Part shown: positions 10,373-14,244 of the stretch, in pieces
Layout of the letters: the number at the start of each line of letters is the position of its first letter
How positions within the stretch are numbered: position 1 is the stretch's first letter
Assembly (NCBI GenBank): GCA_943789275.1
Contig: CALSTM010000003.1
Coordinates: 90,001-122,000, forward strand
DNA: 32,000 nt
Direction: 5' to 3'
Origin: Candidatus Poseidoniaceae archaeon
Lineage (GTDB): Archaea; Thermoplasmatota; Poseidoniia; Poseidoniales; Poseidoniaceae
Position numbers and translations under genes: made by a program
The notes under the pieces: model-generated
Databases searched by the model: none
Told to the model about the DNA's origin: nothing
What the model saw: only the letters and a program-made list of their open reading frames with translations

Positions 10373-11410
10373 ATGTCACAAACGCTGCGAATCCCACACA
10401 TTGATTCCCTCCGAGGCCTCGCAGTACTTCTTATGGTGATGGTCCATGCGGCAGCGACATGGAATCCATTTGATCAAGTTCAACTGACTCCATTAGCCTA
10501 CATTGTCTCGGGGCTAGGCGGGCTGGCAGCCCCTCTTTTCGTTACTCTCTTTGGGTGGGGTATTGCAAGAGGGAGAATGACGGCCAAACAACGCTTGTTC
10601 CAAGCCGTGTTTCTTTTGATTGCACAAATTGGAGTCAACATGACCTCTCCACATCTGTTTCATTTCTTGACACCAGGTATTCTGTCGCTTATGGCCATCT
10701 TAACGCTCATACTCCCACCTCTTATCGAGAGAGTGAATTTATCCGATGCACGTTTTTTTTCAATGACTGTAGGAATCACATTTGCCCTACAGATGTTGAT
10801 TCCAGAACTTCAAGGGACGGGTGTTTGGTCGGATCACATTTCAGATGAGGCCCCGTCAACGGTCGTCTCAAATCTCTTTTTCACAGGCACTTACCCCGTG
10901 TTTCCATGGTTTCTCTTCGCCCTTTTAGGGGCTGTTGTCTCTCAACAAACATTCTCTGAAGGCCAATCATTGCCCTACACGCCACGGGTTGGTTATTCAG
11001 TCTCAATTGGGGTGCTGTTCTGTATAGCTACCCTTTTGCACTCACAAATGAACGATTTGCTTTGGGCTCATCCTACAGCAGATGCAACCCTTACCTTTTT
11101 TCCAGCAAATCCTCCATTTCTAATTGCAGGAATGACGGGCGTCGTACTGTTGTGGTTGCTCATCCAGCGTTTTGGATTCTTTTTCCTGAACAGTACGGGT
11201 AAGTTGTCTTTGACAATATACCTCATTCATTTCGTGCCCCTAACACTGATGCGTGACTTTGAGGTCACGCACCAGTGGGGATTACAAACATCGACTTTAG
11301 CAGTACTCCTGTACACTTTGGCTTGGATTCCAGTCGCAACACTTTGGTTGCGCCGCTACCCAAGGGCTAGTGCGGAGAACGTTCTGCGGGCGATTCGAAA
11401 ATCACTCTGA
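10373..11410 (+). CDS. polytopic membrane protein, DUF1624 / acyltransferase-3-like family
   Basis: 345 aa with about 9-10 hydrophobic segments. The N-terminal IDSLRGLAVLLMVMVHA is typical of the DUF1624 / heparan-glucosaminide N-acetyltransferase-like family. The family call is from memory of that motif only. Confidence 0.6.
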   Translation: MSQTLRIPHIDSLRGLAVLLMVMVHAAATWNPFDQVQLTPLAYIVSGLGGLAAPLFVTLFGWGIARGRMTAKQRLFQAVFLLIAQIGVNMTSPHLFHFLTPGILSLMAILTLILPPLIERVNLSDARFFSMTVGITFALQMLIPELQGTGVWSDHISDEAPSTVVSNLFFTGTYPVFPWFLFALLGAVVSQQTFSEGQSLPYTPRVGYSVSIGVLFCIATLLHSQMNDLLWAHPTADATLTFFPANPPFLIAGMTGVVLLWLLIQRFGFFFLNSTGKLSLTIYLIHFVPLTLMRDFEVTHQWGLQTSTLAVLLYTLAWIPVATLWLRRYPRASAENVLRAIRKSL

Positions 11411-12226
11411 AGCAGCAAGTGCTTCGGTTGCTTTCTTAGCACCCATCCATGCAACAACACCGAAACCGATCTTGTTGATGATGTCTGCAATGTTGTAAGC
11501 AACAGCCATGTATTCTGCACCGTTATCAACTTCAATCAATTCGACTTCAGGGCTGAAGAGGTAGCCAAGAGGGTAGATGATCCAGCCGACGACAATGAAC
11601 CAGCGTAGTGCGTTAGCGCTCCAGAGGAGTTCTTCTGAAATCTTGCTGTTGTCAACGCCAAGCCCAGAGGACCAAGGAGTACCTGTTGCAACGACAATCA
11701 TTGCCCATCCCATGCCACCAAGTAGGAGTGCGAGGATACCGTTCATCAAACCTGCTTCACCAGCATATCCAAATCCAATCATGATAAGCGCACCGAGGAA
11801 ACAGATTCCAGTGAATCCGAGTCCAGCGAACTTTGCATCGGTAATCGCGCCCTTTCCGACGAGGGACGGGAATTTGAGAGCCATCAATGGGACGGTGATA
11901 ATCCAATCCATGTATCGGTATTCAACGGAGACTTCACCGAAATCTGCGTAAACTCCGCGCATGTAGTAGTAGTGGAATGCAGCAATACCTACAATCAATG
12001 CTGAAATGGTCATTGTTGTTCGGTATTGTGGGGCAACGTTACTTCGCTCACTCATGAAGAAAACGAATGCTGCACCCATGGCGATGTATCCTACAAAGAA
12101 GAGGAAGAAAGTCAATGTTTGCAGACCATCATCAACCTTCCGATAGGAAGGCTGGGAATCCGGTCTCTGCGTCCATTTCGCCGAAGCGGTCCAGCAGCAG
12201 AAACTGTGGACGCCATGCGAGGGCAA
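11402..12226 (-). CDS. proteorhodopsin-type microbial rhodopsin (D-T-K motif, Met at tuning position)
   Basis: Helix C RYMDWIITVPLMALKF and helix G YNIADIINKIGFG with the Schiff-base Lys codon at 11471..11473. Seven hydrophobic helices. The 5' end is uncertain: the only in-frame start-type codons upstream of helix A are TTG 12226 and TTG 12115 (see findings). Confidence 0.85.
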   Translation of the reverse strand: MPSHGVHSFCCWTASAKWTQRPDSQPSYRKVDDGLQTLTFFLFFVGYIAMGAAFVFFMSERSNVAPQYRTTMTISALIVGIAAFHYYYMRGVYADFGEVSVEYRYMDWIITVPLMALKFPSLVGKGAITDAKFAGLGFTGICFLGALIMIGFGYAGEAGLMNGILALLLGGMGWAMIVVATGTPWSSGLGVDNSKISEELLWSANALRWFIVVGWIIYPLGYLFSPEVELIEVDNGAEYMAVAYNIADIINKIGFGVVAWMGAKKATEALAASE

Positions 12227-12287
12227 AGGTTGCGATTAAAAGCAGGCTCGTTGTCTTAGAGAATTTATCTGTAATCATTTTTCTCAT
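12132..12287 (-). CDS. leaderless upstream ORF with signal-peptide-like N-terminus; either the true N-terminus of the rhodopsin (frame-shifted by 1 nt) or a separate 51-aa peptide
   Basis: The ATG at 12287 lies ~26 nt downstream of the centre of a TATTATAA box (12310..12317). The product begins MRKMITDKFSKTTSLLLIATFALAW. The ORF ends at tandem TGA TGA (12134..12129), 1 nt out of frame with the rhodopsin reading frame. Confidence 0.35.
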   Translation of the reverse strand: MRKMITDKFSKTTSLLLIATFALAWRPQFLLLDRFGEMDAETGFPAFLSEG

Positions 12288-12309
12288 TTGGCTGTCGAAC
12301 CCTTCACAC

Positions 12310-12317
12310 TTATAATA
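12310..12317 (-). promoter_or_regulatory. candidate archaeal TATA box (TATTATAA) for the rhodopsin locus
   Basis: This is the only strong TATA-like element in the 150-nt gap between the ABC exporter stop and the rhodopsin. Its spacing to ATG 12287 fits a leaderless transcript. Confidence 0.4.
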
Positions 12318-12375
12318 GGGTGTAAAAATCCATGATGGTTTGTTGGGTTTTTCAACCCCCATCAAAACGGCGAAA

Positions 12376-14244
12376 TCAAGTTATTTTACCGGTTTGAACC
12401 GCCCACATCCTCGAATAAAGGCCTTTTAATTGTACCAAATAATCATGAGAACCGTCTTCAGCAATTTCTCCGTTGTTAAGGACGAGAATTCTGTCCGCAT
12501 TTCTTACTGTAGAGAGCCTGTGTGCGATAATTACGGCCGTCCTCCCTTTTGACAACTTTTCAATCGAGCGCTGGAGTGCAGCCTCAGTTTCGTTATCAAC
12601 TGCGGAAGTTGCTTCATCTAAAAGCAGCAATGGCGCATCCTTGAGAACGGCTCTTGCAATAGCAAGCCGTTGCCGCTGACCCCCAGAAAGTCTGTGCCCA
12701 CCTTCGCCAACGAGGGTACTCCATTTATCTGGAAGCTCTTCAACGAATTCCACAACCTCTGCCAATTGAGCAGCTTCCAAAACCTGTTCATCGTCTGCCT
12801 CCGGCCGCCCGTAGCGGATGTTTTCCAATATCGTTGTTGGGAACAACGTGATGTGTTGGTCGACTAAAGCCATCGACGAGCGCAGTCGCTGTAAATTCCA
12901 TTCAGGCAGCGTTCTTCCAGCCCATGAAACGGATCCACCGTTCGGTTCAGCAAAGCGTAGCAGTAAACGAATCAACGTTGTTTTTCCTGCGCCCGTTGAA
13001 CCGACGACCCCAACTGTTTGTCCTTGAACCAGTTCGAGATTCATGTTCTCAAATACGGGCTCTCTACCAGGATATGCAAAATTGAGGTCAGTGAAAACGA
13101 TCGACGATTGCTCTATTGTTTGGTCGTCCGGTGAAAAATCACCTTGTTCGACTTCAGTGGGCGAAGTCAAAACATCGAGGACGCGGGTCGAACTCGCCAT
13201 TGCTCGTTGGTACAAATCAAATGTCTCCCCGAGTCTTGTGAGCGGCCAAAGTAGGCGTTGAGTCATGAAGACAAGTACTGAATATGCGCCCACAGCAAGC
13301 GTACCGTCCAACGTCATCCATCCACCCAGCAGCAGTGTAGCAGTAAATCCACAGAGGATTGCCATCCGAATTAAGGGTGTGAATGCTGCAGAAAGTCGAA
13401 TCGCCTCTCTGTTTGCTTCCCGGTAATGGTTACTGAGCGCTTCAACCCGTTTCATCTCTCTTTCCTCAGCAGTGAACGATTGAATGGTAGACATTCCTGA
13501 AAGGTCGTTTTCAAGTAGCGCATTCATTGCTCCAGCAGACTTTCTTACCTCTGCATACCTTGGTTCAAGGCTTCTCTGATACTTGAACGACCCCCAAATG
13601 ATGATTGGTATTGGCAATACAGCGAACAATGCAACCTGCCAAGAAATGAACAAGAACACGCCACCAACAACGATAACAGTGGTGCTAACCTGTAACAAAT
13701 CGTTGGCACCTTTATCCAAGAACCGTTCGAGTTGATTTATATCGTCATTGAGGATAGCCAAAATGTCACCTTTCTGCCGCTCATCAAACCATCCCATGCC
13801 TTGTTTTTGCACGTGGTTGAAAGTATCTAGGCGCAACTCATGTTGCACAGTCTGTGCAAGGTTTCTCCACAAGATTCCATAGAAATATTCGAACAGCGAC
13901 TCCAACCCCCAAATGGCGAAGGTGAGCACTGAAAGGAAGACCAGTTGGTGCCACGGATCGACCAGACCATAAGACGCTAGAAACGACTCTTCCTTGAGAA
14001 CAACAACATCAACTGCCAATCCAATGAGGAGCGGTGGGGCCAAATCCCATATTTTATTTGTAATCGAACATGCTGACGCTAAACGAATCGTGCCTCTGTG
14101 AGAACCCATGTGCCCAAGCAGGCGTCGAAATGGTCCAACTTCCGTCACAACTCCGCTACTTCGAGGAGGTATGAGAAGTCTATGCACGCCATTTTCGAAC
14201 CCTTTTGATGCGTAACCCCTATGCTGTGCCCGTTGAACGGTCAT
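12376..14244 (-). CDS. ABC exporter, fused permease/ATPase (MsbA/MdlB-type)
   Basis: Six-TM N-terminal half. Walker A GSTGAGKTT, signature LSGGQRQRLAIARA, Walker B LLLLDEATSAVD, H-loop IIAHRLST. An alternative GVVTEV -> GTG start at 14148 would give a typical MTEVGPFRRLLGHM... N-terminus. Confidence 0.9.
   Translation of the reverse strand: MTVQRAQHRGYASKGFENGVHRLLIPPRSSGVVTEVGPFRRLLGHMGSHRGTIRLASACSITNKIWDLAPPLLIGLAVDVVVLKEESFLASYGLVDPWHQLVFLSVLTFAIWGLESLFEYFYGILWRNLAQTVQHELRLDTFNHVQKQGMGWFDERQKGDILAILNDDINQLERFLDKGANDLLQVSTTVIVVGGVFLFISWQVALFAVLPIPIIIWGSFKYQRSLEPRYAEVRKSAGAMNALLENDLSGMSTIQSFTAEEREMKRVEALSNHYREANREAIRLSAAFTPLIRMAILCGFTATLLLGGWMTLDGTLAVGAYSVLVFMTQRLLWPLTRLGETFDLYQRAMASSTRVLDVLTSPTEVEQGDFSPDDQTIEQSSIVFTDLNFAYPGREPVFENMNLELVQGQTVGVVGSTGAGKTTLIRLLLRFAEPNGGSVSWAGRTLPEWNLQRLRSSMALVDQHITLFPTTILENIRYGRPEADDEQVLEAAQLAEVVEFVEELPDKWSTLVGEGGHRLSGGQRQRLAIARAVLKDAPLLLLDEATSAVDNETEAALQRSIEKLSKGRTAVIIAHRLSTVRNADRILVLNNGEIAEDGSHDYLVQLKGLYSRMWAVQTGKIT

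Follow-up and report, generated by a model that had tools for sequence, protein, structure and literature searches.

The window, a stretch of 32,000 nucleotides of DNA, carries on its minus strand what is, to judge by its sequence, one ordinary Poseidoniaceae (Marine Group II, MGII) clade-B proteorhodopsin precursor gene. Unlike other MGII clade-B proteorhodopsin genes, it has its first ~50 codons split across three frames, and this in the window record only; the lineage itself has an intact rhodopsin gene in at least five independent assemblies. Three indels lie in a 101-nt patch that is a fine-scale mosaic of two real alleles. We infer from the assembled sequences that this patch is very probably a consensus artefact, made from mixed haplotypes by the assembler rather than by nature; the genome is a metagenome-assembled genome (MAG) of three contigs.

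The rhodopsin matches PF01036 (Bac_rhodopsin) with an E value of 3e-31 over profile positions 3–222 of 224, and PF01036 matches identify only this one rhodopsin in the 2.11-Mb, 3-contig genome. The rhodopsin frame ends with a stop codon at 11402–11404 on the minus strand. The body contains the D-T-K motif, with the counter-ion pair Asp97/Thr101 in helix C (RYMDWIITVPL, aligned to RYIDWLLTVPL of proteorhodopsin, PR) and the Schiff-base lysine in helix G (ADIINKIGFG, aligned to ADFVNKILFG of PR), while the segment ...PLMALKF places Met at tuning position 105 and Lys at donor position 108. Lys or Glu at position 108 together with Met at position 105 are the criteria for the green-tuned clade B of MGII (PMC6336850), and Met105 predicts green tuning of the window protein. 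All of these features (PF01036, the Asp97/Thr101 equivalents, Lys108, Met105 and the Schiff-base Lys) are shared with the 'Archaea clade B' proteorhodopsins of MGII (Poseidoniales; Tully 2019, PMC6336850). Amino-acid identity to same-genus rhodopsins is 83–98%, and the gene neighbourhood is that of the clade-B relatives, with an ABC exporter on the upstream side and an acyltransferase, in convergent orientation, on the downstream side. The best matches among solved structures include green proteorhodopsin (8cqc; E 5e-35) and Exiguobacterium sibiricum rhodopsin (ESR, 4hyj; E 7e-33). The green-light-absorbing proteorhodopsin (PDB 8cqc, 2l6x) and ESR have the fold and the RYxDWxxTVPL helix C in common with the window protein, but are only distantly related to it in sequence, and the archaeal acidic N-terminal tail after the signal peptide is longer. 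ESR likewise has Lys at the donor position. From the family, we take the precursor to have an inward-facing Sec signal peptide cut after VSA and an acidic extracellular tail, with light-driven proton export as the predicted function. The normal layout would run from a start at ATG 12278 through a Sec-type signal peptide (MITDKFSKTTSLLLIATFALAMASTVSA, cut before A) and a short acidic extracellular tail to seven helices with the D-T-K motif.

The features of the locus, in the order in which they begin along the gene, are as follows.

12310..12317, minus strand: archaeal TATA box TATTATAA(G), conserved ahead of the rhodopsin start among same-genus orthologues
12285..12287, minus strand: upstream ATG, lineage-specific, taken as the start by the sequence-only reading; CTG or TTG in most other species
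12276..12278, minus strand: start codon of the rhodopsin precursor (M-I-T-D-K-F...), conserved as ATG in every aligned orthologue
12217..12278, minus strand: segment 1 in frame A, MITDKFSKTTSLLLIATFAL(A), comprising the signal-peptide n- and h-regions; identical to orthologue N-termini
12137..12237, minus strand: anomalous 101-nt patch; 13 substitutions and three indels relative to same-population contigs
12216..12217, minus strand: indel 1 (-1), loss of one base between GC and ATG; all comparators have GCN-ATG
12190..12216, minus strand: segment 2 in frame C, MASTVSAAG, the c-region with the VSA-A cleavage motif; matches orthologues
12183..12191, minus strand: indel 2 (+4, or 2 missing) in GGACCGCTTC; same-population contigs have GGTGTT
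12135..12182, minus strand: segment 3 in frame A, GEMDAETGFPAFLSEG, the acidic extracellular N-terminal tail; matches orthologue GEMDAETGLPAFLSD(N/G)
12135..12140, minus strand: indel 3 (-2, or 1 extra) in GGAAGGTTG; same-population contigs read GGATAATGTTGATGAT
11402..12136, minus strand: rhodopsin body in frame B, VDDGLQ...helices A–G...stop; PF01036
12129..12134, minus strand: tandem TGA TGA closing frame A; in the orthologue frame, bases within V-D-D

The frames described in the sequence-only reading were confirmed as drawn. Frame B, that of the rhodopsin, is open back to TTG 12226 and has no ATG or GTG ahead of helix A, so that TTG 12226 and TTG 12115 are its only start-type codons there; frame A contains a 51-codon ORF from ATG 12287 to TGA TGA (12134–12129), and TATTATAA lies at 12317–12310. 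That reading saw a single 1-nt offset at TGA-TGA and missed a third open frame, frame C (ATG 12216..12112), which begins with MASTVSAAG. DNA alignment with orthologues reveals three frame changes at the locus, along the path A to C to A to B, and the orthologous protein is found in the order MITDKFSKTTSLLLIATFALA in frame A, MASTVSAAG in frame C, GEMDAETGFPAFLSEG in frame A and VDDGLQ onward in frame B. With three indels, skipping the T at 12134 would not restore the protein. The n- and h-regions of the proposed signal-peptide ORF do match orthologues, but its seemingly protein-like continuation, WRPQFLLLDRF, is an out-of-frame reading of the conserved MASTVSAAG.

The TATA box reads TATTATAAG in same-genus orthologues (TTTATATG in a few). 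Its conservation supports the predicted role of TATTATAA as the promoter, and its position would fit a very short 5' leader. The leaderless geometry proposed earlier is reasonable as to the TATA box; the conserved start codon, however, is not ATG 12287 but ATG 12278, 9 nt downstream. ATG 12287 is present in the same-population contigs, where gene calls mostly begin at the next ATG; one 294-aa gene call starting at ATG 12287 exists. A conserved TGAGAAAyATG is found at the start, with window positions 12279–12286 directly upstream of ATG 12278 and ~25–30 nt downstream of the TATA box; this stretch may mark the start of transcription, or the initiator region, of an mRNA that is nearly leaderless.

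A query with the rhodopsin returned rhodopsins of Poseidoniaceae (Marine Group II) in the thousands, the majority 285–305 aa long. The orthologue N-termini read M-I-T-D/E-K-F-S-K-T-T-S-L-L-L-I-A-T-F-A-L-A-M-A-S-T-V-S-A-A, followed by a variable acidic tail and G-L-P-A-F-L-S-D-G-x-D-D-G-L-Q-T-L-T-F-F. Start codon, signal peptide and helix A lie in one frame in all orthologues and not in the window. Alignment with orthologous loci, the check named in the sequence-only reading, gives signal peptide and helix A in a single frame in 14 same-genus genomes, in several metagenome contigs and in many database proteins.

Five contigs from other assemblies represent the population of the window, and each contains an uninterrupted 291-codon rhodopsin gene. 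L091 (JGI Ga0206126_10105381) was found by a 27-mer from a lineage-specific intergenic region, and L095, L096 and L097 were reached through its intact 291-aa product, P0177. The public protein P0208, carried by L099, was found by exact look-up; the amino-acid sequence of its body is identical to that of the window and is joined to an intact N-terminus. Comparison of four of these contigs with the window gave the following.

L099 (ENA ERZ23491308 scaffold_773, 39 kb), same population: 10,880 aligned columns, 29 differing, 20 of them in patch 12137–12237 and 9 outside (0.08% of ~10,780), no indels outside
L095 (ENA ERZ807187, 62.8-kb SPAdes contig), same population: 5,880 aligned columns, 29 differing, 20 in the patch and 9 outside (of ~5,775), no indels outside
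L096 (ENA ERZ27295564), same population: 1,224 aligned columns, 27 differing, 20 in the patch and 7 outside, no indels outside
L097 (JGI Ga0206123), same population: 1,203 aligned columns, 26 differing, 20 in the patch and 6 outside, no indels outside

The same patch positions differ in L091, where 20 of the 31 differing columns fall within 105 of the 1392 columns (binomial P = 1.3e-15); the 20 patch columns are identical among L091, L095, L096 and L097 as the set in which the window differs. All three indels separate the window from the same-population contigs, and no other indel separates it from L099 over ~10.8 kb.

L091 has TT at window position 12419, where the window and orthologues have TTT, which shifts the frame of the last 14 codons of its ABC exporter; at the intergenic position 12361 it carries G6, against G5 in the window. 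Neither L095 nor L099 departs from the window at these two positions. Because of these two differences, L091 is not an error-free comparator. Broken rhodopsins occur at the locus in other assemblies as well: in L094 (JGI Ga0494222_0163, a 292.6-kb contig) the gene at 1501–2375 is split into 165-aa and 126-aa products, and in L092 (ENA NODE_2584, coverage 1.7) the ABC exporter is split and the C-terminus of the rhodopsin is shifted.

These alignments bear on two biological explanations raised by the sequence-only reading. The first divides the locus into two cistrons, of which the upstream one (from ATG 12287 or 12278) would encode a small secreted or membrane peptide and the downstream one a rhodopsin initiated at TTG and lacking a signal peptide. 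Both ORFs are indeed open in the deposited sequence, but the arrangement is present in no orthologue, and both WRPQFLLLDRF and PSHGVHSFCCW..., the N-terminus from the TTG, arise when conserved orthologue sequence is read out of frame; in exact look-ups neither the small ORF (51, 48 or 77 aa) nor a TTG-started rhodopsin was present in a 15-billion-protein collection. We regard this arrangement as very improbable. The second, which we consider least credible of all, is a programmed +1 ribosomal frameshift at GGT-TGA-TGA that joins the leader ORF to the rhodopsin. The resemblance to the programmed +1 frameshift of prfB (RF2) lies in an in-frame UGA at the junction where the downstream frame takes over, that frame being open across the overlap. 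In contrast to prfB, the site is not conserved and three frame changes are present instead of one; because there are three indels, one shift would leave the signal-peptide cleavage region out of frame. Two cistrons and programmed frameshifting are both refuted, because the 14 same-genus orthologues and the five same-population contigs read signal peptide and helix A in one frame.

An assembly or sequencing indel had been the third suggestion. It was of the right kind and wrong in detail, as the patch contains three indels and 13 substitutions in 101 nt rather than one indel. At the site of indel 1, GCN-ATG is found in 14/14 orthologues and 5/5 same-population contigs, and the missing base is one at which two allele classes differ (T versus A). 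The site of indel 2 reads GAACCGCTCC in the allele class of the orthologues L012 and L008. Indel 3 gives rise to the TGA-TGA stop in frame A. None of the three is a simple change in homopolymer length, and a plain homopolymer-error explanation was rejected.

The substitutions in the patch follow the orthologue frames. Eight of the nine clean substitutions (those not adjacent to an indel) are synonymous along the frame path A–C–A, at 12237, 12234, 12231 and 12219 (frame A), 12211 and 12199 (frame C) and 12180 and 12171 (frame A); those at 12211 and 12199 are synonymous in frame C only. The ninth changes Leu to Phe. It follows from the eight synonymous changes that the patch sequence evolved as coding sequence in the orthologue frames and that the indels are later or artificial. 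In a three-way alignment of the patch, 46 columns match the local allele only, 16 match the L012 type only and 9 match neither. The 5' third of the patch and an ACCGCT.C insertion match the L012/L008 allele class (AMAGTVSAAEPLPTGDNGLPEF...) and other stretches match the local allele, with about five alternations between the two in 100 nt. Indel 1 (12217/12216) is located inside an L012-like tract, and indels 2 and 3 are located at length differences or clusters of mismatches between the classes.

The tail between signal peptide and helix A (window 12135–12195; orthologues L002–L018) varies in length and sequence within the genus, with variants such as AAGVGEMDAETG.., AADITPGAMDANTG.., AAEPLPTGDN.. 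and AADAAIPYEKSSD..., and keeps a (D/N)GLPxF(L/I) motif; the gene body is 83–98% identical among same-genus rhodopsins. The recurrence of tail allele classes across species suggests recombination. The rhodopsin locus is also a hot spot of micro-diversity. Outside the patch, 6–7 of the 9 differences from L095 and L099 are in the ~1-kb rhodopsin locus (window 11402–12320) and 2–3 in the 5–10-kb flanks, and the G/S (11938) and E/K (11533) variants occur in all combinations in public data. One ENA protein of 258 aa, P0168, shares the signal peptide and the beginning of the tail (MITDKFSKTTSLLLIATFALAMASTVSAADFTPGDMNEDTGLPAHLYDSAG...), after which it goes on, in place of a rhodopsin, into unrelated protein sequence that contains Cys and is very acidic and basic; either the contig is chimeric or the leader also serves a different secreted protein.

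The consensus-artefact explanation would account for the patch as follows. Long-read, strain-collapsing metagenome assembly or polishing would have merged reads of two co-existing haplotypes into a garbled consensus over the end of the signal peptide and the tail, in which the same-population allele (AAGVGEMDAETGLPAFLSDNVDDG) is mixed with a second allele class of the genus (AAEPLPTGDNGLPEF...), and the consensus would have gained three small indels exactly where the two alleles differ in sequence or length. One in-frame haplotype expected among the merged reads is GCTATGGCATCC...GGTGTTGGAGAAATGGAT...GGATAATGTTGAT. Strain-oblivious long-read assemblers are known to collapse co-existing strains into one consensus, and the resulting indels break ORFs (Strainberry, PMC8302730); three contigs for 2.1 Mb suggests that the genome is such a long-read MAG. 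The patch resembles consensus indels described for strain-collapsed long-read assemblies (PMC8302730; proovframe preprint 10.1101/2021.08.23.457338) in being a short heterogeneous stretch between perfectly matching anchors, in mixing two allele states and in having indels that break an otherwise intact gene. The putative errors are within the heterogeneous patch and the flanks are near-identical to the population (0.08%, no indels, over 10.9 kb of L099); the patch itself combines two real alleles on a fine scale, and its indels lie where these differ. This is the appearance expected of a majority or bubble consensus built from two mixed haplotypes, and three independent real mutations in 85 nt, with the other 245 codons unchanged, would hardly produce it.

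The frequency of frameshifts in the genome (G000) was assessed by reciprocal tblastn against 563 kb of a relative (G005), a comparison in which the N-terminal 'junctions' of stop-to-stop ORFs are ambiguous in either direction. The core genes proved clean: about one clear mid-gene frameshift was seen for ~590 genes. That frameshift, outside the window at G000:C3:289127-290285, is an extra G (CAGGAT versus CAGAT) relative to an intact 386-aa ORF of G005, in a locally diverged stretch. A generally error-ridden assembly was rejected on this count; the errors, if such they are, would be local to variable regions rather than general.

The main competing explanation is that the patch is real: two N-terminal allele classes would recently have exchanged sequence in patches, by gene conversion or recombination, and the resulting mosaic would have been out of frame, leaving a rhodopsin that is freshly inactivated or poorly expressed from TTG 12226 without its signal peptide. 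We consider this unlikely. Among species, the N-terminal tail has many natural indels and a mosaic make-up, its allele classes being related by shifted alignments; most SNPs between the window and the same-population contigs sit in the rhodopsin locus, so that a distinct haplotype does exist; and the assembly is accurate elsewhere. A real allele nevertheless requires three separate indels in 85 nt and none in the other ~10.8 kb, with one of them a deletion within a donor-like tract, at a biallelic site and away from a junction. The remaining 245 codons show no decay and are identical to the intact public protein, and the gene is the only rhodopsin of the genome and is read in a single frame in every same-genus genome with a readable 5' part. 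In its specific form, a mosaic created by short-tract gene conversion between tail allele classes that circulate across Poseidoniaceae species, we find the proposal doubtful.

A truncated product of 225 aa (P0191), called from the internal ATG 12079 (11402–12079) and without most of helix A, favours a real allele to the extent that it is recorded on six contigs (NCBI, ENA). The longest of these, at 704,698 nt, is the contig of the window, whose public annotation apparently calls the rhodopsin from ATG 12079, and the six may be copies of one assembly. If some of them were independent assemblies with the same indels, the case for a real allele would gain weight. Another 225-aa call (P0192), on a different contig, was set aside as a contig-edge truncation. 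Searches for the frameshifted form itself, in the protein collections and, for the indel-2 junction, in JGI contigs, count against a real allele. The AAGPL.GEMDAETGFPAFLSEG allele was in no protein in an N-terminal search of the read-through protein against 5.8 billion proteins, and a scan restricted to JGI metagenome contigs gave no match to the indel-2 junction of the window with in-frame length variants allowed. As a point against an artefact, no in-frame form of the patch allele carried by the window turned up in the 5.8-billion protein set or in the JGI contigs.

For annotation and quality control, the danger of the 225-aa call is that a species-representative genome would seem, wrongly, to encode a photoprotein that is truncated or has no start. 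The case indicates that the errors of this 3-contig MAG, accurate as it otherwise is, cluster where strains vary, and other 'frameshifts' in the genome are to be read likewise. Were the mosaic real, the exposed acidic tail would be a hot spot of recombination or diversification, for example under viral or surface-interaction pressure, and the MAG would represent a dominant clone just after the loss of its sole rhodopsin. On the consensus-artefact explanation, the observation is real as sequence and not as biology: the locus holds no new recoding or leader-peptide biology, and the source organism most likely makes a normal, signal-peptide-bearing rhodopsin.
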